64,000 bases of DNA from a virus (taxonomy: Duplodnaviria > Caudoviricetes), in IMG/VR virus record IMGVR_UViG_3300025383_000009, one strand, 5' to 3'. Below the pieces are notes generated by a model. That model did no database searches. It saw only the letters and a program-made list of their open reading frames with translations, and had not been told where the DNA came from. Each line of letters begins with the position of its first letter. Position 1 is the first letter of the stretch. Both the position numbers and the translations under genes were made by a program. Shown here in pieces: positions 13,829 to 47,404 of the stretch.

Positions 13829-14113
13829 CTATCCAAAGAATACGTTTTGTGAGCCTTGTGCTACTACAGACCCACAATCTATCGGGTCACCTATACGCAT
13901 AGCAGCTCTTCCATTAATGAATACTTTACTTGATCCTTCTTGTCCTCTCCCATCATGACATATGATGGTACAACAATGTGTTTCCCATAGATCACCTACA
14001 CGTGCAATACCTACACCGTTTGCAAACACGTTGCTAGATCCTTCCATCACAGTACGTGGTGGGAAACAACCATGTCCTGAACAAACATCACCAATCCTAG
14101 TTCCAGCTGCCAT
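13829..14113 (-). CDS. gp5.4: PAAR-domain spike tip protein (T4 gp5.4-like)
   Basis: RIGDVCSGHGCFPP...GSSKVFINGRAAMRIGD; Cys/His metal ligands present. Confidence 0.9.
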   Translation of the reverse strand: MAAGTRIGDVCSGHGCFPPRTVMEGSSNVFANGVGIARVGDLWETHCCTIICHDGRGQEGSSKVFINGRAAMRIGDPIDCGSVVAQGSQNVFFG

Positions 14114-15447
14114 TATGCAATAGTACCATAAGAAGTAACACTTTGTACAGTAGTGAGGTTACCGTTTGAATCAAGCATAGCTACATGTACACCAGTAGTT
14201 CCAGTTAAGTACATGAATATTAGTTGTCCACTTGCACCTTGTAATACAGTCCAATTTGTTGTTCCGAATCCTGGTCCTGTTGGTCCTGATGCACCACCCG
14301 TTGGACCTTGAATACCTGTAGCTCCTGTTAAACCCGATGCACCTTGAGTTCCTGTAGCACCTGTAGCACCTGTTTTACCTGTGGATCCGCTTGCACCTGA
14401 TGCACCACCAGTTGGACCTTGAATACCTGTTGCACCAGGCAAACCTGTAGATCCACTCGAACCTTGAGTTCCTGTAGCACCGCTTGCACCTATTGGTCCT
14501 GTTGAACCAGTAGCTCCTCTACCAGTCGCACCTATTGGTCCTGTTGCACCTGGAATGTTTGATACACCCGCTGGACCTGTAGATCCTGTCGGACCAGTAG
14601 CACCTGATGCACCGCTTGCACCCTGTGGACCTGATGCACCACCTGTATCTCCTTGCGGGCCTGTTGCTCCTGTATAACCTGTCGCTCCTGTCGCACCAGT
14701 ATAACCTGTTGCACCTGTCGAACCAACAGGTCCTGATGCACCACCAGTTGGACCTTGAATACCTGTTGCGCCAGGCAAACCTGTCGCTCCACTTGCACCA
14801 GTAACACCTGTTGCACCTGTATATCCTGTAGCACCGCTTGCACCTTGATAACCTGTAGCACCTGTAGCACCAACACCGCTTGCACCTTGTGGACCTGTAG
14901 ATCCTGTTGAACCTGGTAACCCTGCACCTGTAGCGCCAACACCGCTTGCACCTTGTGGACCCGTAGATCCTGTAGCGCCCGTTAATCCTGCACCTGTCGC
15001 ACCTGTCGAACCTGTTAAGCCCGTCGATCCGCTCGAACCTTGGATACCTGTGGCACCTGTCGAACCTGTTAAACCTGTTGAACCACTCGCACCTTGATAA
15101 CCCGTCGCTCCTGTAGTTCCAGTATAACCTGTGGCACCTTGTGGACCAGTTGCACCTTGTGGACCTGTAACGTTACCTACGTCAACCCATGATGCACCTT
15201 GCCAAACCCATAAGTGACCAGTATTAGTCGTGATGTATCCATCACCTATTGTATTTCCAGTGAGTGGTAGTAATGATGAGTTAGCAACAGAACCTTTAAT
15301 CGTTACTGATTGACCGATAGGACCTTGTGCACCTGTTGCACCTGGAGTTCCTGTAGCTCCTGTGTATCCTGTGGCTCCAGTAGAACCTGTAGAACCTATC
15401 GGTCCTTGTATCGTTCCTGAAGCTAGTTGTTGTAGAGTTATCGTCAT
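14113..15447 (-). CDS. Collagen-like (Gly-X-Y) fibre protein
   Basis: About 300 aa of GAT/GAS/GPQ triplets. Confidence 0.85.
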
Positions 15448-15456
15448 TTATTTTCC

Positions 15457-17079
15457 CTATACATACTCATAGATGATTACTATACCTGAACCACCTTGTC
15501 CGCCCGTTTGATATCCTGGAGTTCCAGCTCCACCACCTCCACCACCGCCTGCAGAACCAGGCCCAGCGTTTCCACCACCGTGTCCACCACCAAACCCGCT
15601 TCCAGATCCGAGGTAACCAGCACCGCCTTCACCACCACCTGTAGTAGAGTATATACCACCGCCACCTGCAGAGCCACCTGATCCAATCAAGTTAACGTCA
15701 CCGCCTGTCGCAGTACCACCAGCACCACCCGCGTTTGTTCCTGCACCGCTGTTACCGTTTGATCCACCTGTACATGTTAGGAAACTACCAAACGTTGTCG
15801 TACCAGCTGGTCCACCCACAGTTATAGCAGTGATAGTAGATAGCACGTTTGACATGATCTTCTTGATCGCCATACCACCTCCACCTCCACCACCTCCACC
15901 ATAGTATGCGGATCCTGCTGTGGTACCGTTTCCACCATTACCGCCTCCACCTACAGTGTGTACTACGATATAACCTGGGTTATTAACCGTCTTATCATAT
16001 CCTGTTGCACCAGCAGTATTGAATGATGTTATACCTATTAAGATACCACTTAAACCTTGTGGGCCTGTCGCTCCACTTGCTCCTGTAATCCCTGTTGCAC
16101 CCGTATAACCAGTCGCTCCTGTAGCTCCTGTAAACCCTGTTGCACCTGATGCACCGTCAATACCTTGTGGACCTGTAGAACCTTGTGGTCCTGTTGCTCC
16201 TTGATAACCAGTAGCACCACTTGCACCTGTGTCTCCTTGAAGACCACTTGCACCTATAGGACCTGTTGCTCCTGTATAACCAGTAGCTCCGCTTGCTCCA
16301 TCTATACCAGTGGCACCGCTCGCGCCTTGGTATCCTGTAGCACCTGTATAACCTGTTGCACCTGTATATCCTGTCGCTCCAGTAGAACCATCATATCCAC
16401 TAGCACCTGTTAACCCGGTAGAACCGCTTGCTCCTTGATAACCAGTGGCACCTTGTGGACCTGTAGCTCCTGTGTAACCTGTCGCACCCGTTGCTCCACT
16501 ATATCCTGTAGCACCTGTTGAACCCGTATAACCTGTCGCACCTGTTGCACCAAACCCTGTAGCACCTGTCGCTCCTGGACCACCCGTTGCACCTGTTGCA
16601 CCAGAAGGACCAACTGTTGATACTACTAACCATTGTGAACCGTCAAAGGTAAAGTATACTAGCACTCTAGCTATGTTGATGAGTAAGTCGTCATCATACC
16701 CATCGATGTTATGTCCATTACGTAGTATGGTTAATGGGTTTTGTTGCCAATTACCACCATCTTGTAATAGTATTGACATACCAGTCGTTGGTGTTGCTGG
16801 TAGTGTTATGCTAAAAGAACCACCGCTTGTATCAGCTATGATCTGGTCATACGCATACAAGGATGGGTCTAATACGATTGAATTCGTAACCCTCTGCCAA
16901 TGTAGACCTGGTTGTACCCAACTCCTTGTACCATCAACGTTTGATGCTAGTACATAGCCGCTGTACGCTGGTAGTCCTAAGTTAGGTTCTGCTTCTGATA
17001 GTTGTAAAAACTCATACCTGTCTGGTGATACACCAGATGGCGGTATGACTTTAACTTTACCAGATAATATTCTAGCCAT
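15457..17079 (-). CDS. Collagen-like fibre protein with C-terminal glycine-rich domain
   Basis: Phage fibre repeat ([15 protein letters not shown]), Gly-X-Y tract, GGGGGGG-rich end. Confidence 0.8.
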
Positions 17080-17403
17080 TTACTGATTCCAAGATACTTA
17101 ATGTTATTTTAAATTTACTGTTATCACTCGCTGATACTGATATTGAGTGACCGGTTTCAAGTACTAGTTTACCCGTAATTGCAGAAGCTGAATCATTGCC
17201 AGGTATAAGAAAGTCTTTGATAAGCTCTGTAGTAGTTGAATTAAATTGATGTGTAAACGTTACTGTGCCAGAAGTACCAGAGACGTTAGCTATCTGCGCC
17301 ATCAATATGATAGATGATTTACCAGCTGGTGCAGTATAGATGACTGTATCAGCTGTGGTTATTTCTGCTGTCGTGGTTTTAAATACGTTTAATGCTATAG
17401 CCA

Positions 17404-17404
<1 letters not shown>
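17072..17404 (-). CDS. Small beta-rich fibre-associated protein
   Basis: 110 aa ORF coupled to the adjacent fibre genes. Confidence 0.6.
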
Positions 17405-20068
<2,664 letters not shown>

Positions 20069-39325: not shown

Positions 39326-40419
39326 TAGAACGCTCCCAATAAAATAGTTTCTTCGTTGATCCGACCATTTGGAACTGTTGGCTTGGTCGTTAAAGCCTTT
39401 GCTGCTGTATTCAAATTCTTTTTACTTATAGATAAGTCTTTGAAGAACTTCTCAGGATTCCTAAGTGTCCATGACCATGACTTAGCTACACTGTAATTAA
39501 TTATAGTTGTACCCTTAACTGATAATAAGTCTGAGTCATCAGCTATATAAGCCACAAGTTTTCTATACTTGATATTATATGCCCATAACTCCTTAGCACC
39601 AACGATGTCTGTAGGATTACATGACTTAAGATTCAATAGATCGTGCTTAAACATATACTTAAGTTTCTTAACTAATACTGCAGGAGGCTTAACCTTAACT
39701 ACCCTTGGCTTCTTAACAGTAACTTGATGTTGAGCACAGTCATCTACAATAGATTGGATCGCAGCTCTAAACTTTTTAAGTTCTGTCTTAGTAAGGAATG
39801 AATAGCCTTCTGTAAGTTGTTCATCTGTACCAGTCAATGCTTCATCTATCTCATCAACGTTAAGCTTATAGTAGTCACCGATACGTTTAGCGACCATGCC
39901 TGACACGTTGTTAGATAACAAGTGTGCTTTAGTATTGAAGTCCCACGTTTTAGAATGGATAAACTTATCAATAGCATAGTCGATGTCCTCAGAGGCAGCA
40001 CGAGCTGCATCAGTCACACGTTGATCTATAGAGATGACTGGTGCCTTAGGACGATCGTCTACTATAGGTTGATTATAAGAATAGCACTCGTATAATGAGT
40101 CAAGCTTATCTTGTATACCCTTTTGATCCTTATCAGATAGATGCTCACCTTTATTGAGTATAGTAATAAGAGATCCTAATGATAGGAACTCATAATCTGG
40201 CGCCTTTGATAAGACATCATAATATTTCTTATTAGTCTTCTTAAGATAATTATGTACGGCCTTAGCACGTTCACTGTTATCCATATTAAGGTTATAGTAT
40301 CCTAAAGCTTTCATCAAAGACGTACGATAGTCGTCTTGTGTTACCACAGGAGCGCCAGCACCTATGCCTTTAGCGATAGCCTTTTCTTGCCATTCTTTGG
40401 TTGGTTTTTTAGTTTTCAT
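39325..40419 (-). CDS. Conserved T4-like hypothetical protein
   Basis: GAKELWAYNIKYRKL...LSVKGTTI...NGRINEETILL C-terminus. Confidence 0.7.
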   Translation of the reverse strand: MKTKKPTKEWQEKAIAKGIGAGAPVVTQDDYRTSLMKALGYYNLNMDNSERAKAVHNYLKKTNKKYYDVLSKAPDYEFLSLGSLITILNKGEHLSDKDQKGIQDKLDSLYECYSYNQPIVDDRPKAPVISIDQRVTDAARAASEDIDYAIDKFIHSKTWDFNTKAHLLSNNVSGMVAKRIGDYYKLNVDEIDEALTGTDEQLTEGYSFLTKTELKKFRAAIQSIVDDCAQHQVTVKKPRVVKVKPPAVLVKKLKYMFKHDLLNLKSCNPTDIVGAKELWAYNIKYRKLVAYIADDSDLLSVKGTTIINYSVAKSWSWTLRNPEKFFKDLSISKKNLNTAAKALTTKPTVPNGRINEETILLGAF

Positions 40420-40425
40420 ATTGGC

Positions 40426-40454
40426 AGTATACCATAATTAATTATTAATGTACA
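40426..40454 (-). promoter_or_regulatory. Promoter TGTACA-TTAATA-N11-TATACT
   Basis: Family member; ATG 6 nt downstream of the -10 hexamer. Confidence 0.75.
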
Positions 40455-40455
40455 A

Positions 40456-40713
40456 TTATTCAGCTTCTTGGTTTGTAACTGTTTGATAGATCGTCTCAAA
40501 CTCATCGTTCAAAGCTACCTCTTCATTAAAGTTTTGCTTATGATACGTATTAGCAAGCTTAGCAAGCGTTTTCTTAGGGATCTTAAATTCGTCATAAAGG
40601 TTCTTAAGTACTTCTTTTACAAAGTCCTTCTCAGCCTCAACGCGTGTCATAGAATCAGAGATCTCGTTAAGAGCACCTTTGATTTTCTTTTTGTCTTCGT
40701 CTAATAATTGCAT
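40456..40713 (-). CDS. dsbA: Double-stranded DNA-binding protein DsbA
   Basis: ALNEISDSMTRVEAEKDFVKE...KLANTYHKQNFNEE. Confidence 0.85.
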   Translation of the reverse strand: MQLLDEDKKKIKGALNEISDSMTRVEAEKDFVKEVLKNLYDEFKIPKKTLAKLANTYHKQNFNEEVALNDEFETIYQTVTNQEAE

Positions 40714-40736
40714 AATATACCTTTCAAGTTAAAAAT

Positions 40737-40799
40737 AAAAACACACTAGACGAGGCGACCTCGTGGCCACAAGTTCCTGCTTATCTCTAATGTGTTTTT
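40737..40799 (-). ncRNA. Candidate 63 nt three-way-junction RNA or structured dsbA leader
   Basis: 14 bp closing stem and two inner hairpins; G-U pairs only on the minus strand; follows ACTAAATA. Confidence 0.5.
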
Positions 40800-40800
40800 A

Positions 40801-40808
40801 TATTTAGT
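40801..40808 (-). promoter_or_regulatory. Late promoter variant ACTAAATA
   Basis: TAAATA core directly before the 63 nt element. Confidence 0.4.
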
Positions 40809-40934
40809 AAGACTCTCGAAACTACGAAGTGCACTCGTAGCTGACCCATCGGAAGCAGTGGCCCGCTGAGCATGCATACCCATTAAAGCACAGCCAGTGT
40901 CCGCATATATTTTATTGATTGGCTGAGAGTCTTA
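40808..40934 (-). ncRNA. Candidate 127 nt multibranch structured RNA
   Basis: Perfect 10 bp closing stem TAAGACTCTC/GAGAGTCTTA plus four inner stems. Confidence 0.55.
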
Positions 40935-41066
40935 TTCGTCATAGCCAGGTCCCCAGAAGTGAGGGTCGATACCACCTAGATAGTTTAGGTCTTCGTTATC
41001 ATCCTCTTCAATAGGATCTGGCACTGGTGTAATGTAACCGTCTTTTTTGTCTTTGACATTTAACAT
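40932..41066 (-). CDS. 44 aa acidic hypothetical protein (not in ORF track)
   Basis: MLNVKDKKDGYITPVPDPIEEDDNEDLNYLGGIDPHFWGPGYDE*; ATG 6 nt after a -10 hexamer. Confidence 0.55.
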   Translation of the reverse strand: MLNVKDKKDGYITPVPDPIEEDDNEDLNYLGGIDPHFWGPGYDE

Positions 41067-41072
41067 GATATC

Positions 41073-41101
41073 ATTATACCCTTTTTTTGGTTTATTGTAC
41101 A
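41073..41101 (-). promoter_or_regulatory. Promoter TGTACA-N17-TATAAT
   Basis: Family member. Confidence 0.7.
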
Positions 41102-41108
41102 TATATTT

Positions 41109-41297
41109 TTAAGCCTTAACACTGTCAACTGTTGCAAAGCCAGTCACCGCTGCTTTACTGTAACCCTTAGACCAAATGCTGCCAGTCCTATTTACAGGTA
41201 CTTCACTGCCTCGTGGACCATGATATGGCAACTGTTGAACCTTACCACCATTATCTAAAAATTCTTGAACTGCTTGTTGAAATTCTTGTTCTGTCAT
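41109..41297 (-). CDS. SutA-like RNA polymerase-binding protein
   Basis: AVQEFLDNGGKVQQLP resembles the P. aeruginosa SutA core; AAGGAG RBS before ATG 41297. Confidence 0.55.
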   Translation of the reverse strand: MTEQEFQQAVQEFLDNGGKVQQLPYHGPRGSEVPVNRTGSIWSKGYSKAAVTGFATVDSVKA

Positions 41298-41307
41298 AGC
41301 TTTCTCC

Positions 41308-41718
41308 TTACCAACTTGAATTATAAAATACTTCTTCGCCTCTCGCAATTGCTTCGCGAGCTTTCTTGATGAACTCTAAGTCTGATGCTTTATCATCAGC
41401 ATCGAACCTTGAGTCATAACCAAAGAAGAAACCTTCGGTCATAGGTAACTGGTTAGTCTTAACGCGGGCCTCGATATAATCAAGGTCTGCCTCTGTAAGT
41501 TGAAGCTCAACTCCGTTGAAGTCGATCTTTGAGTCTTCGCTGTACTCGTCAGGATACTCGTCGATCAACCATTGTGGAACCTTAGCTCCCTTATCATGCC
41601 ATAACTCTTCCATAAGACCATGAAGAGCGTTGTGTTTTCTCCAGTATTGAAGCTCCGTTGATGGTGCTTCAGCTGCAGATTCTTTAGCGCGGCTATACGC
41701 ATACATATCTAAACCCAT
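41308..41718 (-). CDS. Conserved phage hypothetical protein
   Basis: MGLDMYAY...YWRKHNALHG...GFFFG...YNSSW pattern. Confidence 0.7.
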   Translation of the reverse strand: MGLDMYAYSRAKESAAEAPSTELQYWRKHNALHGLMEELWHDKGAKVPQWLIDEYPDEYSEDSKIDFNGVELQLTEADLDYIEARVKTNQLPMTEGFFFGYDSRFDADDKASDLEFIKKAREAIARGEEVFYNSSW

Positions 41719-41879
41719 TATCTAATCTCCTTGATAAATTTTGCTTTGAGTAAACTTTCAACTATACCATTATCATTATCTTGAGCGGTTAACATCCAAC
41801 CTTCTAAAGTAGTACCTGAAAAGGCATATTGTGGGTTAACAAGGCATTTATAATAATGTCCATTGATTTTAAAAATCAT
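41718..41879 (-). CDS. 53 aa hypothetical protein (not in ORF track)
   Basis: MIFKINGHYYKCLVNPQY...KEIR*; TAATG overlap at both ends. Confidence 0.55.
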   Translation of the reverse strand: MIFKINGHYYKCLVNPQYAFSGTTLEGWMLTAQDNDNGIVESLLKAKFIKEIR

Positions 41880-42355: not shown

Positions 42356-44365
42356 CTACTTAGATTGTGCCCTAAAAGTGCCATCCCATTCAGCCGGGAG
42401 GCCCTCTTCCATACGTTCAATCATGTTCATGTAGTACTGCTTGATGGTTACGCTGTCATCTTCGACCAAACCTTTGGCCCATTTGATAGCTTTATCCCAG
42501 TTTCCACGATAGTATTCTTTTATGTATTCATTATGCGCGTGTTTAACTGTCTCACCGATCGTGTAGATCTTAATGCCTTCAGTCTTACCTTTCACTGCGA
42601 TGTTATCTAGTTCAATAACGTTGTAATGGTCTTTAACTAGTTCTGCTGTGCGTGCACCTAAAACAAGCTTAACACCGTACGGCTTAGATTGTCCTTCAAG
42701 CCTTGACGCCAAATTGACTCCGTCACCGAGACAAGTATAGTCAAAACGCTGGCTAGAACCCATATTACCCACAACGACATCAGCAGTGTTAATACCAAGT
42801 CCCATCCCGAAAGCCGGTACGCCTTCTTTAGCAATCTCTTGATTGAACGCATCTAAGTCTCCTAACATTGATAGTGCAGTCTTAACTGCGTTGAGAGCAT
42901 GATCTTTATCATCAAGTGGAGCATTCCAAAAAGCCATCTGTGCATCACCAATATACTTATCAAGTGTTCCGTTGTTCTCTATGATCTTAGCAGTCATAGC
43001 TGTCATGTAACGATTCATGATCTTAGTTAAGCCTTGTACATCCTTACCATAGTGTTCTGATATGGTTGTGAAGCCTCTTACGTCTGTAAACATGATACTT
43101 AATTCTCTTGTTTCACCACCAAGCTTTAATAGTTCTGGGTTCTTTTGTAGTTTATCAACCATTGCTGGTGATAGGTATGTACCAAACTGTTTCTTGATCT
43201 GTAGTTTTTGGTTTAACTCGCTTACAAACTTAACAGTATATGTATGAGCATATACGATAGCCAAAGCAACGATAGGAAAAATCCCATCCAAAAGAACGCC
43301 GTAATGAGAGAAAACATAACTAGAAGCGTAATACAAAAAGCCAAGAAGAAGCAAAATAGGGATAATAGCATATTTCCACCTTGATAGGATAATGATAAAG
43401 ATTGATAATAATATGACTGCTAATACTTCAGCGCCATCTGCCCAGCCAGGTCGTGATATGCTAGTACCTGATGTGAGCGTGTCTAGAACTGACGCTTGAA
43501 GGTAATGAGGAAAGAGTCCACCTCGAGCTGTTGCAACTGGGTTGTTAAGTCCCTTTGCGGTAAGCCCAACAATGACGATACCTCCGTTAAATGATTCTGG
43601 GAGGTCCATAAGACTGTGTTCAATTGGAGTCGAGCTCCAGTCGACCCAGATACGACCGATTGGGTCGGTTGTAATTTTGGAGAAGCTTGGGATTCGAACA
43701 GCTTCGATTCCTGAAACGGAAGATTTGACTTGGAAACTTGGGTCTCCGACTGCGACACGCAAAGTTTCGAGAGTAATACTTGGGTAGAGCAAGCCTCCGC
43801 TTGATACGACCATAGGGATACGACGAACAACACCATCAATTTCAGGTAAGACATTTACAACTCCTATTCCAGCAGCTTTGTTATTAAATAGTTCAATGTT
43901 AGGTTGGATCCCAGGGTAATCAATAGTGAAGTCATGAGCTGGTGATCCAATCTCAGAGACTCCCGGTCTAAATGCTTGTCTAACTTGTTTATCTGTCGAT
44001 GCTACCTGAGGTAAGACGACAGGGTGTCCAGCAAGACTATCAACCAAGTTGGCATCGCGTCCAAAGCGATCAGAGTCAGGCATAAAGATATTAAAAACAA
44101 CAAGACCAGCATGACGGTGATAAAGATCCTCGATAATATTTGCATATTGACTCCTTGGAAATGGGAATTGACCAAGTCTTTCAATCGACTTATCATCGAT
44201 GTTAACCACGTGGACTTGCTTGGAAACGGTCTGTGGTTTACTAGTAATTAGTGTATCAAAGTACCTTAGTCGAACTGACTGCACAAAAGATGGGTCAGAT
44301 GCTCTAATACCTACTAGCAGAGCTAACGTTAACAGTGCAAACCAGGGTGATAATAATCTTTTCAT
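42356..44365 (-). CDS. CHASE2-domain class III adenylate/guanylate cyclase
   Basis: N-terminal TM, CHASE2 region (GQFPFPRS, DGVVRRIP), three TMs, catalytic FTDVRGFT, DKYIGDA, FDYTCLGDGVNLASRLEG. Confidence 0.93.
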   Translation of the reverse strand: MKRLLSPWFALLTLALLVGIRASDPSFVQSVRLRYFDTLITSKPQTVSKQVHVVNIDDKSIERLGQFPFPRSQYANIIEDLYHRHAGLVVFNIFMPDSDRFGRDANLVDSLAGHPVVLPQVASTDKQVRQAFRPGVSEIGSPAHDFTIDYPGIQPNIELFNNKAAGIGVVNVLPEIDGVVRRIPMVVSSGGLLYPSITLETLRVAVGDPSFQVKSSVSGIEAVRIPSFSKITTDPIGRIWVDWSSTPIEHSLMDLPESFNGGIVIVGLTAKGLNNPVATARGGLFPHYLQASVLDTLTSGTSISRPGWADGAEVLAVILLSIFIIILSRWKYAIIPILLLLGFLYYASSYVFSHYGVLLDGIFPIVALAIVYAHTYTVKFVSELNQKLQIKKQFGTYLSPAMVDKLQKNPELLKLGGETRELSIMFTDVRGFTTISEHYGKDVQGLTKIMNRYMTAMTAKIIENNGTLDKYIGDAQMAFWNAPLDDKDHALNAVKTALSMLGDLDAFNQEIAKEGVPAFGMGLGINTADVVVGNMGSSQRFDYTCLGDGVNLASRLEGQSKPYGVKLVLGARTAELVKDHYNVIELDNIAVKGKTEGIKIYTIGETVKHAHNEYIKEYYRGNWDKAIKWAKGLVEDDSVTIKQYYMNMIERMEEGLPAEWDGTFRAQSK

Positions 44366-44493
44366 TTGATAGCGTGTGTCTTGTTATGTTTTAAACTCTT
44401 CTTGATTGCTTTCTTCCAAAGCTTCTCTTCTTTTTTAGGCTTATGCTTAACGCATGCCTTATACATCTTCATTATTAGTTCTTTAACTTTCAT
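44362..44493 (-). CDS. 43 aa very basic protein (not in ORF track)
   Basis: MKVKELIMKMYKACVKHKPKKEEKLWKKAIKKSLKHNKTHAIK*; ATGA overlap with the cyclase start. Confidence 0.55.
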   Translation of the reverse strand: MKVKELIMKMYKACVKHKPKKEEKLWKKAIKKSLKHNKTHAIK

Positions 44494-44494
44494 G

Positions 44495-45385
44495 CTATGC
44501 TCCTTGTATTTTAAACTTAATATACTCTGTTATCAAGTCAGCGACGTCAGTCTCACAATACTGTTCAAACCCTTTAAATCCTGGGTTTGAGTTAGCTTCG
44601 CATACTCTAAAGCCTCTTTTGTCGAATAGTAAATCCACACCTGCAATATCTAGCTTAAGTACTTTTGCAGTCTCTCTAGCTATATATTCAATCTCGTCTG
44701 TTATCTCGTAGTTATGACCAGTGCCACCATTAGTGATGTTAGCTCTGAAGTCACCCTCTGGTGCTGTACGTCTCATAGCTCCTACTACTTTACCACCTAT
44801 GACAAGAACCCTTAAGTCCTCACCTGGACGGTCACCAAGATATTCCTGTACTATCATCGTCTTCTTAGCGTTTAAGATATCGATGAACTCCATCATCTTT
44901 TTGTACTCTCTTATGGTCTCACAGAGGTGTACACCTTCCCCATAAGAACCTGATACCAGCTTAACGACACACGGAAAGCCTATGTTATCAGTCACTAAGT
45001 CATCGTCTATAGGCAACCTTACTAACATCGTGTTTGGTATAGGTAACCCGTTCTTACTTAATATCTGTGATGTCCTTAGCTTATCTTTTACTATCTCGAC
45101 AGCAGAGCTTGAGTTAACACACATCACGCCTGCTTGTTCAAAGTGTCTTATCACTGCTAGCTGGAAAGGTAGTATGCCTGCACCCAACCTAACCAATAAT
45201 AACTTTGGTAACTCTATCGTCTCACCGTCGTACTTGATACCTTCACGTAGGTCTTTATCTACGATGATGTCAAAGTTATCAGGATGGCAGACACGAGCAG
45301 TTATACCTTTTGATGTAAAGCTTTCTACGAGCTTATTAGTCTCGTACTCGTTTCTTTCCTGCTTTGATAATATAATTACAGTCAT
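44495..45385 (-). CDS. rimK: RimK-family ATP-grasp glutamate ligase
   Basis: DKLRTSQIL, FPCVVKLVSGSYGEGV, DLRVLVIGG, FRANITNGG and CEANSNPGF motifs. Confidence 0.9.
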   Translation of the reverse strand: MTVIILSKQERNEYETNKLVESFTSKGITARVCHPDNFDIIVDKDLREGIKYDGETIELPKLLLVRLGAGILPFQLAVIRHFEQAGVMCVNSSSAVEIVKDKLRTSQILSKNGLPIPNTMLVRLPIDDDLVTDNIGFPCVVKLVSGSYGEGVHLCETIREYKKMMEFIDILNAKKTMIVQEYLGDRPGEDLRVLVIGGKVVGAMRRTAPEGDFRANITNGGTGHNYEITDEIEYIARETAKVLKLDIAGVDLLFDKRGFRVCEANSNPGFKGFEQYCETDVADLITEYIKFKIQGA

Positions 45386-45390
45386 GACAC

Positions 45391-45419
45391 ATTATAACTT
45401 ATTATTTAATTAATGTAAA
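45391..45419 (-). promoter_or_regulatory. Promoter TTTACA-TTAATT-N11-TATAAT
   Basis: Family member; ATG 5 nt downstream of the -10 hexamer. Confidence 0.7.
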
Positions 45420-45420
45420 A

Positions 45421-45774
45421 TTATTCGAAGCCTTCGTTGCGTTTTACACGCCATACATAAGACATCTGTGTTCCATCTGGCCTATCATCATTGATAAGTA
45501 TACGCTCACCGTTTGGTAAGTTAAAGATGATGTCGTCAAACCTAATATCATGTTTCTCTAAGAACTTTATAGTATGCTTCTTAAGATACTTTGGTCTAGC
45601 AGTAATTAAGATTATATGGTCCTTTTCAGGTATAGTATCCCAAAACTCTTTAACACCAGGCAATAACTTATCTTTACATACCGCAGACTTTAATAGGTTA
45701 TACCTTAATATAGTCCCATCAAGATCGATAAACCAAGTCTTGCGATGTTTAGACTTTAAGTTAGTTAACTTCAT
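45421..45774 (-). CDS. Small HAD-superfamily phosphatase
   Basis: WFIDLDGT motif I, LITARP and LINDD. Confidence 0.75.
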   Translation of the reverse strand: MKLTNLKSKHRKTWFIDLDGTILRYNLLKSAVCKDKLLPGVKEFWDTIPEKDHIILITARPKYLKKHTIKFLEKHDIRFDDIIFNLPNGERILINDDRPDGTQMSYVWRVKRNEGFE

Positions 45775-46338
45775 TTATAGTGGTAACCAGAGCCATAAAC
45801 CTTGTGACATCAATACTACACCAACCAAACATAATAGGAATGATGAGTAGAATAATGGCATTGATACAGCAAGGATAGACGCTGATAACAACACGATAGA
45901 TAGCTGATAAGCTGTACCTGCATAACCGATCCATGGAGATCTCTTCTTAGCATAGTCACGGTCAGCTTCTAACTTCTTAGCTGTATCATATAATGCAGGT
46001 TTTCCTTCTGGTCCTTCATCATAGCTTTTAGCTTTTACTGCAAATTTCTTAGCTAGATCTGGGTTTGTAGCAGTCTGAGCTGAGATCTCATACTGTGTTT
46101 GCTTTACTGATTTAGCTTGGTAGAAGTTCCATAAGTCGTTTGCTTTGATCGTGTTGTTCATGATGAGTGAACCTAATGAACCTCCGAACCATACGTTAAA
46201 TGCCAATAAAGCAGCAAATATATTAATGATTAAACCCGCATGTGATTTAATCTTAACCTCTTTTTCTGATCTTGAAGGTCCAATGTTCTTAGTCTCTTCC
46301 TTTGTTAATGTCTTAATGACCATATCTTCTAAAGCCAT
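45775..46338 (-). CDS. DUF4337-like membrane protein
   Basis: Two TM segments flanking ANDLWNFYQAKSVKQ. Confidence 0.7.
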   Translation of the reverse strand: MALEDMVIKTLTKEETKNIGPSRSEKEVKIKSHAGLIINIFAALLAFNVWFGGSLGSLIMNNTIKANDLWNFYQAKSVKQTQYEISAQTATNPDLAKKFAVKAKSYDEGPEGKPALYDTAKKLEADRDYAKKRSPWIGYAGTAYQLSIVLLSASILAVSMPLFYSSFLLCLVGVVLMSQGLWLWLPL

Positions 46339-46339
46339 G

Positions 46340-47404
46340 TTAGTTTCCTTTTTGATTGATGGTTATACTATTGGTCGTTTGGTCTTGATTTTTTAAATTT
46401 ACCGTTACGCCATTTTGTATAATATTTATATTGTATCCTTTATCTTTATCTATTAATACTGTAGCACTATCTTTAACTGTTCTTTGTATCATCCAATATG
46501 TTTGTTTGTCAAAAATATAAACTTGATTTAGAGCATTATATCCTACAACAAAAGTAGCTAACAATGTATTATCAAGAGCATTTGTTAAATAGTTTGTATC
46601 AAGAGGATTAACATCTAGTTCATTGAAACCCGCATATGGGTCTTTAAATACTTTTGAATCTAATGCATTTTGTTCCAATCCTGTAAACTCTAAAGCAGAA
46701 CCAGATTTATTGGCTATTTCAGCTTGTATTCTTTCAACAACTTCTTTTGGAGGTTTAACGATAAGCATATTATCAATAGCTGATTCTGATAAAGCTAATA
46801 GAACAGGTTTAAGAGGTTTAATTTCTGATGATTTTGTTACTGTAGCTTGAAATGCTTGGTTTAAAACAACTTTTCCCATAGCTGTGCTAACTTCAATTGA
46901 ACCAACTGAACCATCTGGATTAGGTAATAAAATAATGAGAGATTGACCTATTTCATCTACTGTCATTGTGAATGCTGTACCACGAACAGCAACAGTTGCC
47001 GTTGGTGTATTAATAGCCACATTTTTATTATTTTCATGGGCAATATTACCAGATGCATAACGAACAGTTCCCATTGTTACATTGAGAGCTAATTTACCTG
47101 CACCTTTTTTATTGGGGTCATAGACAAAATCGTCTATAAGAAGTTTTGAATGTTCGGTAACACGAACTTGTGTGTTATCTTCAAATGTAATGCCTACTAT
47201 TCCATTGCCTGTTTGAACAATATCATTACTATCTATATTTGATTTAGGTTTAGCCTCTATTACATCTTTATTTCTAGTAATAGAGGCTGGACCTTTTTGT
47301 TCAGTTATAGAACCAATTACCGCCCAACTAGTGTTGGATGACAGACACAGAAGCACCGCTACCAGTAAGGTTAACGATTGCACTATTTGGGTTGGTCGTA
47401 CCAT
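46340..47404 (-). CDS. FecR-domain periplasmic protein
   Basis: Signal peptide; VQTGNGIVGITFEDNTQVRVTEHSKLLIDDFVYDP...GTVRY...TPTATVAVRGTAF. Confidence 0.85.
   Translation of the reverse strand: MVRPTQIVQSLTLLVAVLLCLSSNTSWAVIGSITEQKGPASITRNKDVIEAKPKSNIDSNDIVQTGNGIVGITFEDNTQVRVTEHSKLLIDDFVYDPNKKGAGKLALNVTMGTVRYASGNIAHENNKNVAINTPTATVAVRGTAFTMTVDEIGQSLIILLPNPDGSVGSIEVSTAMGKVVLNQAFQATVTKSSEIKPLKPVLLALSESAIDNMLIVKPPKEVVERIQAEIANKSGSALEFTGLEQNALDSKVFKDPYAGFNELDVNPLDTNYLTNALDNTLLATFVVGYNALNQVYIFDKQTYWMIQRTVKDSATVLIDKDKGYNINIIQNGVTVNLKNQDQTTNSITINQKGN

Follow-up and report, generated by a model that had tools for sequence, protein, structure and literature searches.

The DNA analysed here, called the window in what follows, is a stretch of 64,000 nt (64 kb) from a T4-like phage that encodes a gp5-type hub lysozyme, a family B DNA polymerase and a gp41-type helicase. 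Judged by the helicase, its nearest cultured relatives, at about 63–65% identity, are Kyanoviridae cyanophages and the methylophage Melnitz. At 42356–47404 (minus strand), genes for a 669-aa CHASE2 adenylate/guanylate cyclase, a RimK-type ATP-grasp ligase and a FecR-domain protein adjoin one another; these are unusual auxiliary genes for a T4-like phage. Three collagen-repeat proteins, probably tail fibres, are encoded at 14113–19875 (minus strand), one of them with an Mtd_N (major tropism determinant) N-terminal domain, and the G+C content of this patch is 0.50, against 0.38 for the window.

The subject of this study is a 127-nt RNA element on the minus strand, where the order reads 56-aa ORF, element, long hairpin, dsbA, 364-aa ORF and RNase H gene. 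As read from the homologues, its fold is a three-way junction that consists of P1, junction strands, P2 with its arm P3, and P4. The features of the locus, in the direction of reading, are the following.

40932–41102, minus strand: upstream 56-aa ORF with the end ..DPHFWGPGYDE; the same ORF end adjoins the element in many relatives
40808–40934, minus strand, read from 40934 to 40808: whole RNA element, 127 nt, the sole covariance-model match in the 64-kb window
40925–40934, minus strand: P1 5' strand; the UAA at 40934–40932 is the stop codon of the upstream 56-aa ORF
40905–40924, minus strand: an A, the near-invariant GCC and the conserved single strand J1/2 (invariant alignment columns)
40900–40904, minus strand: P2 5' strand, the invariant GCGGA, identical in 81 of 81 and 66 of 66 sequences and always paired
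40856–40899, minus strand: P2b (CA/UG) and the extended P3 arm; P2b covaries (columns 37–96 and 38–56)
40848–40855, minus strand: P2 3' strand, with a CU bulge, UCCG, a bulged A and a U that pairs with the G of GCGGA
40843–40847, minus strand: junction strand, the invariant GGGU plus a C, invariant in three alignments
40820–40842, minus strand: P4 hairpin AGCUACGAG-UGCAC-UUCGUAGUU; modelled pairs with double changes
40808–40817, minus strand: P1 3' strand, which pairs with 40934–40925 (perfect, 10 bp)
40729–40805, minus strand: long hairpin between the element and dsbA, with a 13–14-bp stem, a structured interior and a U-rich tail
40456–40713, minus strand: dsbA, T4-type double-stranded-DNA-binding late transcription protein (PF11126, E = 1.4e-9)

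The window copy stands free of RNA genes, between the 56-aa ORF and dsbA. ARAGORN found 0 tRNA or tmRNA genes in the 64-kb window, and a promoter and terminator scan of 40400–41800 showed neither a promoter-like site immediately ahead of the element nor a canonical terminator. The element has a G+C content of 48%, against 38% in its flanks, as expected from the earlier description of a GC-rich segment in AT-rich surroundings. This sequence-only reading had also placed the start of the RNA at the stop codon of a 44-aa ORF. The overlap with the UAA holds, but the ORF is 56 aa long if translated from its first ATG, and the 44 aa correspond to a start at its second Met. The 56-aa product had neither a Pfam nor a PHROG match. 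Its acidic C-terminus is conserved, as ..DPHFWGPGYDE or ..DPHFNGPGFDE, in the window and in the relatives L002, L013, L020, L022, L026 and L030, and in all of these the stop codon lies on, or just ahead of, the first bases of P1, so that ribosomes terminating there would unwind P1.

Within the element, P1 of the window is UAAGACUCUC/GAGAGUCUUA, the perfect 10-bp closing stem that had been proposed, and this 10-mer is not repeated exactly anywhere else in the window. J1/2 reads AAUCAAUAAAAUAUAU, for which the family consensus is CAMUYAAU..AUAnAU. The P3 arm comprises UGGC/GCCA, internal loops and the tip hairpin UGGGUA-UGCA-UGCUCA, with the palindrome AUGCAU at 40877–40872, and the tip of P4 contains the palindrome AGUGCACU. 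The hairpin at 40729–40805 is a separate conserved structure, outside the family core. Its stem covaries in relatives (AAAGUGCAUUAG/CUAGUGCACUUU, ..GUACA.., ..GCAUA..), and the relatives' interior of this dsbA-side hairpin (AGAGGGGUCAAAC..CCUCUAUUUGACC) could form an H-type pseudoknot, GGUCAAA/UUUGACC, with some compensatory change. The interior in the window differs from this pseudoknot-capable one.

An RNA family of uncultured phages

Relatives of DsbA were collected from IMG/VR at 66 loci, in many of which blastn then located the element; the relatives carry versions of differing length, and the region from the small ORF to dsbA is very plastic by the same comparison. When the conserved 5' strand was turned into a search pattern, it matched 113 stretches of IMG/VR and at least 119 contigs from metagenomes. 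We built the covariance model R1 from a hand-annotated seed and the model R2 from 58 matches, and these models confirmed 58 of 58, 26 of 26 and 76 of 80 of the loci tested. The window element itself reached 39 bits with R1 (E = 8e-7) and 52.4 bits with R2 (E = 1.2e-8). Members are mostly 84–127 nt long. Their sources are uncultured phages, mostly from lake water, and the family was seen almost solely in uncultured phage DNA.

As a positive control, R2 found one copy per genome in five of five large phage contigs. Two of these encode a T4-type major capsid protein (gp23) and three do not, and two of the latter three are nearly complete; because copies lie on both gp23-positive and gp23-negative contigs, the RNA crosses phage lineages. 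In 185,579 GTDB species genomes there were four pattern matches, two of them confirmed by covariance model, on MAG contigs (1,963 and 514 bp) of probable phage origin. A further pattern match, from a human-gut metagenome, was rejected as a chance match.

Comparison of the whole window with Rfam 15, one of the checks suggested along with the sequence-only reading, gave no family at gathering thresholds. At E values up to 10 no model matched over the element core, among them those for hammerhead, twister, hatchet, pistol and HDV-like ribozymes, riboswitches, ROOL, GOLLD, pRNA and YrlA; the earlier statement that the element is neither a tRNA nor a hammerhead is in keeping with this and with the ARAGORN result. 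The Rfam tRNA and tmRNA models match the neighbours of relatives and not the element, except where the element is an insertion in a permuted tmRNA gene. Among 50,697 GenBank phage records, blastn with either the window region or a typical relative as query yielded no true match, R2 had no match in the complete genomes of T4, Melnitz and the Synechococcus phages DSL-LC03 and S-SRM01, and no published description of this RNA family was found in the literature searched. A 'glutamine riboswitch' has been reported in the ssrA of Melnitz (PMC9004378). We considered whether it is the same element and rejected this, since R2 has no match in the whole Melnitz genome and the two therefore differ. Taken together, these sequence comparisons point to a large, phage-specific structured RNA family that neither Rfam 15 nor the literature searched contains.

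All versions of the element share one plan, which runs P1, GCC, the single strand CAMUYAAU..AUAnAU, P2, P3, GGGU, P4, a linker of 0–4 nt and the P1 return strand. P2 joins GCGGA with UCCG and one more base, and two covarying pairs extend it. The sequence of P1 is unrelated between clades, P3 and P4 are variable, and P2 and GGGU are invariant. In 81 distinct sequences from viral contigs, standard pairs fill 96.2% of the pair cells, against 66.5% with shuffled partners and 30–44% when the register is slid by 1–3 columns, and 16 of 22 pairs show double changes; a replication with 66 distinct metagenome sequences gave 96.5% against 64.5%, slid registers gave 29–44% overall, and all these counts were made on alignments fitted to the covariance model and thus lean towards it. 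Across the family, 10–11 of the 11 modelled pairs of P1 covary, and all five modelled pairs of P4 show double changes, with 97% of its cells paired. RNAalifold recovered P1, P2 and P4 from the alignment unaided, and a script that uses no model found P1 helices of 8–18 bp and unrelated sequence in 28 of 29 first instances.

The pair cells of the family contain 171 G-U but 22 A-C combinations, and the folded RNA is thus the minus strand of the window; the G-U bias towards this strand, noted earlier in the single sequence, is a property of the whole family. Single-sequence folding of the window element was not better than its shuffles beyond chance (z = −1.9 for the minus strand and −2.1 for the plus strand), and the case for structure therefore rests on the homologues. 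The minimum-energy fold of the window element (−39.4 kcal/mol) and the homology-derived fold (−32.0 kcal/mol) differ in their centres.

With about 100 or more distinct homologues and their heavy covariation, the proposal of a structured RNA on the minus strand was borne out, and the suggested collection of homologues did bring compensatory changes to light. The inner stems fared unequally. P4 (AGCUACGAG/UUCGUAGUU) and UGGGUA/UGCUCA are retained, with compensatory changes in L030, but AGCCA/UGGCU and AGCGG/CUGCU are not conserved in homologues and clash with conserved pairings. The supposed pseudoknot between CGGA and UCCG is in fact the nested, invariant helix P2, present in 81 of 81 sequences and the most conserved pairing of the family.

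In order to find further tertiary or pseudoknot pairs we scanned the alignment for mutual information, and nothing emerged beyond P1, P2b, P4 and the palindrome described below; a covarying partner of J1/2 was sought in the same scan, with none found. Because the junction strands are invariant, covariation cannot reveal how they fold. The conserved strand GCC-A-M-U-Y-AAU..AUAnAU is probably unpaired. T4-like (gp23-positive) and non-T4-like phages have about 30 invariant positions in common.

The closest relative of the window element discussed here, L030 (1722–1847), is 92.5% identical to it, although their DsbA proteins are only 64% identical, which points to recent cassette exchange or very strong constraint. 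By eye, the differences between the two elements lie mostly in the P4 hairpin and are compensatory: L030 preserves P3 by changes from G-C to G-U and from U-G to U-A, and its P4 differs yet still pairs. The extended P3 with the UGGGUA/UGCUCA tip occurs only in these two. A further copy, L155 (9569–9643), has no P4, and GGGUUA is followed at once by the return strand of P1. Perhaps the family can do without P4, or this copy is in decay.

An unrecognised coding sequence, the alternative named in the sequence-only reading, was checked and rejected. Overlapping ORFs of 45 and 30 aa cover the element but are not preserved across the family, P3 lengths range over 14–44 nt with differences that are not multiples of three, and substitutions are compensatory in pairs. 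We also disfavoured the P4 loop GUUCGAAA as a tRNA T-loop, since its length is 8 nt and its closing pair is one position out of register, the variant GUUGCAAA retains the palindrome and not the T-loop consensus, and the loops of other clades are UGCA, AGCA or GAUA. Collectively, these results leave little doubt that the element belongs to a real structured RNA family.

The self-complementary P3 loop

In most members P3 is a loop of 10–12 nt closed by P2, not a hairpin, and of 97 distinct arms 84 were found to contain a perfect palindrome of at least 6 nt, whose central hexamer takes 19 different forms. The first set contained such a palindrome at a fixed offset in 54 of 62 distinct arms, against 13.8 expected from shuffles, and an independent set of 26 new arms contained it in 23, against 5.5 expected. 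Examples are CCUAGG, UCUAGA, CUCGAG, UCCGGA, GCCGGC, CCAUGG, ACCGGU, CUGCAG and GUCGAC, and the P3 tip of L030 is a perfect 10-nt palindrome. Self-duplexes of these palindromes come to about −5 to −12 kcal/mol. In most arms the palindrome has only 6–8 nt and lies in a short loop, too short for a stable internal hairpin, and it should therefore be available for a second molecule. The feature is thus an apical self-complementary hexamer that stays palindromic despite sequence change, as in kissing-loop dimerisation elements, and judged from this pattern it would be the signature of a kissing-loop homodimer. We consider a homodimer through P3 rather probable. The palindromes could instead be a feature at the DNA level. 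One subclade (L039, L152, L158 and L254) has an ordinary P3 hairpin with no palindrome.

Many P4 loops are self-complementary as well (UGCA, GCGC, UUCGAA, UUGCAA, GGCC or GUAC), and several clades have AGCA, GAUA or GACG there; a second dimer contact through P4 is therefore possible but not general.

The dimerisation initiation site of HIV-1 is a 6-nt self-complementary apical loop whose hexamer differs by lineage and is palindromic throughout. P3 shows the same pattern over its 19 hexamers; the molecule and its biology are unrelated, and the likeness concerns mechanism only. The pRNA of the phi29 family is likewise phage-encoded, about 120 nt long, built around a three-way junction and multimerised by loop-loop pairing. 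It uses two different, mutually complementary loops; its gene lies at the end of the genome in small Bacillus phages, and its role is in packaging DNA. The element has a palindrome rather than two complementary loops, and the Rfam pRNA model does not match it. ROOL and GOLLD are about 5–9 times the size of the element and form cages of 8 to 14 subunits. Encoded by phages and prophages, 'often near tRNA islands', these RNAs of unknown function form homo-oligomers partly through intermolecular kissing loops, and GOLLD often exceeds 800 nt (PMC12286853). For the element, oligomerisation is predicted from sequence patterns, and the Rfam ROOL and GOLLD models do not match it. By its presumed mechanism, the closest analogues are kissing-loop dimers and the oligomeric ROOL and GOLLD RNAs.

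Neighbouring tRNA and tmRNA genes

Within 600 nt of 81 copies ARAGORN found 99 tRNA or tmRNA genes, and 99 of 99 lie on the strand of the element. By a rule-based count, at least 15 of the 81 copies sit exactly between the ..CCACCA of the tmRNA acceptor piece and the GGGG.. of the coding piece. Adding L115 (Rfam) and L101 (by eye) brings the copies in the tmRNA intervening segment to about 17 of 81, and this placement was confirmed with Rfam for L068, L090, L115 and the contig behind L121. Eight copies show the arrangement tRNA-Thr, element, tmRNA acceptor piece, and further ones lie 6–15 nt from tRNA ends or just downstream of a tmRNA; L125, for example, has tRNA-Asp 6 nt upstream and tRNA-Cys 7 nt downstream. 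In these RNA-gene settings the flanks lengthen P1, often from the ACCA of the preceding RNA, into a clamp with a median of 23 bp. In the window copy the closing stem has only 10 bp and starts on the stop codon rather than on CCA.

About one quarter of the copies, including that of the window, have no adjacent RNA gene, yet they keep the entire core. About one quarter, again including the window's, follow a small ORF ending in ..GPGYDE or ..GPGFDE, and there the element is succeeded by a long hairpin and then by tRNA-Met, other ORFs or dsbA. Over the family, downstream neighbours comprise tRNA-Met, Glu, Arg, Ser, Cys or His, the coding or acceptor piece of tmRNA, unrelated ORFs and dsbA. A permuted tmRNA is not encoded by every element-bearing genome, and the window copy is not in an intervening segment, for ARAGORN and Rfam found no tmRNA in the window. 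Since only about 17 of 81 relatives are placed there, this position does not define the family. A complete 236-kb T4-like phage contig (G003, behind L141) has two separate permuted tmRNA genes, with the element 14–15 kb from either.

Other stem-closed units were seen in the tRNA arrays of L109 (784–9603) and L136 (5385–11633), where several further inverted repeats of 17–24 bp frame 31–147 nt between RNA genes. Several of them begin on the ACCA of the preceding tRNA, and one framed unit is the tmRNA intervening segment. The covariance models match only one stem-clamped unit in each array and none of the other interiors, so that the family represents one specific, unusually conserved interior among the stem-closed RNA cassettes of phage tRNA arrays.

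For fifty years T4 RNA C and D have been without a known function. These species 1 and 2 RNAs (rnaC and rnaD) are small (139 and 119 nt) and stable, and their genes lie in the tRNA cluster, co-oriented with the tRNAs and abutting them. The sequence-only reading had likened the element to them. The likeness is one of genomic situation, shared by most relatives though not by the window copy with no tRNA in 64 kb, and it does not extend to sequence and structure: with E values up to 1 allowed, neither R1 nor R2 matched the tRNA region of T4 or any other part of its genome, and rnaC ends in a tRNA-like T-arm and acceptor, which the element family lacks. The intervening segment of permuted two-piece tmRNA genes (Rfam RF01849, RF01850 and RF04321), for which tRNA-type excision is expected, is the other point of comparison. 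Unlike such a segment, the element is also found upstream or downstream of tmRNA genes, between tRNAs, or with no RNA gene nearby. The reference for tmRNA genes of this permuted kind is Keiler et al. (2000), as cited in PMC11915505. The tmRNA database paper itself treats the intervening segment merely as sequence missing from mature tmRNA, and mentions one segment with a tRNA gene and one with a repeat (PMC11915505). By context, T4 RNA C and D and the tmRNA intervening segment are thus the closest of the systems compared.

Four observations speak for a function beyond that of a spacer, namely the roughly 30 invariant positions, the free-standing copies with a full core, the single copy per genome in five contigs, and the identity between the window element and L030.

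How the RNA may work

From the fold, strand, conservation, palindrome and genomic context we infer a course of release, dimer formation and partner binding. In most phages the RNA would be co-transcribed with tRNA and tmRNA genes and released by the enzymes that mature its neighbours, with RNase P cutting at the 5' end of the next RNA, followed by trimming of the 3' end or by RNase III acting on the long P1 clamp. The product would be a small RNA that is resistant to nucleases and protected by its clamp. In the window the transcript of the 56-aa ORF would instead end in the element as its structured 3' tail. Discrete release of this copy is the least certain step, because P1 has 10 bp, no RNA gene adjoins it and no promoter-like site lies directly upstream. 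Two molecules would then join through the self-complementary hexamer of the P3 loop into a kissing-loop homodimer, and the invariant junction strands would form the working site, which may bind a conserved host or phage partner, perhaps in translation or tRNA metabolism. Judged from conservation and context, we lean towards a free, stable RNA acting in trans. For the whole of this reading, a family RNA freed by tRNA-type processing that forms a P3 homodimer and works through its junction, we estimate a probability of roughly 55%.

The best surviving alternative is that the element acts only in cis, its clamp and top guiding the maturation of adjacent tRNA or tmRNA ends as a hairpin for RNase III or for RNase P/E, after which the piece is discarded. 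The position of copies right on processing junctions, in the tmRNA intervening segment or 6–15 nt from tRNA ends, would suit such a module. The stem of an RNase III substrate needs about 23 bp, and the median clamp is of this size; the other units in the same arrays, clamped by stems of 17–24 bp around different interiors, also fit. However, the quarter of copies that have no adjacent RNA gene retain the invariant core, the element also occurs in phage genomes with no permuted tmRNA, and a mere spacer would need neither 30 invariant junction bases nor a maintained palindrome. We therefore regard a pure processing module as unlikely.

The second alternative is a mobile or recombining cassette, attC-like or MITE-like, that is selected as DNA and whose fold acts in single-stranded DNA. 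Inverted repeats do frame the element, which occupies different slots in unrelated phage lineages, the similarity between the window and L030 elements is far above that of the flanking DsbA, and the palindromes resemble 6-bp restriction sites. Yet it is the inverted repeats that vary freely and the interior that is conserved, the reverse of transposon ends, the excess of G-U is strand-specific (171 against 22), and co-orientation with RNA genes holds in 99 of 99 cases. Selection as DNA is thus improbable as the explanation, while mobility of the cassette may exist in addition to an RNA function.

A further alternative is that the element is a self-cleaving ribozyme of a new class, which would excise itself from tRNA and tmRNA precursors. 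This is suggested by a small three-way junction in which a strongly conserved core is combined with variable stems, and by its location directly at the ends of other RNAs. Against it, the models of known ribozymes gave no match even with E values up to 10. Self-cleavage leaves a 2',3'-cyclic phosphate, and an upstream CCA end that carries it is unfit for charging. The downstream cut is already explained by RNase P, the palindromic loop would be left unexplained, and the window copy has nothing adjacent to release. We hold this to be very unlikely. A riboswitch or leader controlling the downstream gene, which would be dsbA in the window, is scarcely credible: the conserved junction is aptamer-like, and in the window the element precedes a U-tailed long hairpin and then dsbA, but downstream neighbours are heterogeneous and often RNA genes, with no consistent regulated gene set, many copies lie inside a tmRNA gene, and no alternative pairing connects P1 with the long hairpin. 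None of these rivals accounts jointly for the invariant junction, the maintained palindrome and the copies away from RNA genes.

Starting from the preferred reading of a processed, dimerising RNA, a more far-reaching version can be put forward tentatively, and we think it rather less likely than not to hold. The element would be an obligate RNA-only homodimer, or a larger closed assembly where the P4 loop is also self-complementary, and thus a miniature counterpart of ROOL and GOLLD. It would be mass-produced from tRNA and tmRNA precursors, including the 'discarded' tmRNA intervening segment, and would capture or mimic a component of host translation or tRNA surveillance.

In summary, a small, abundant and well-defined family joins the RNAs of unknown function in phage tRNA islands, next to T4 RNA C and D, ROOL and GOLLD. 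Its short self-complementary loop predicts a dimer that is tractable by six-base swaps. The placement of copies in the intervening segment of phage two-piece tmRNA suggests that the excised segment is in some cases more than waste. Confirmation of the dimer and of a partner would place the element among the smallest natural RNA-only quaternary structures. It would also establish a phage effector RNA of a new class and give access to the wider group of stem-closed cassettes that phage tRNA arrays contain.
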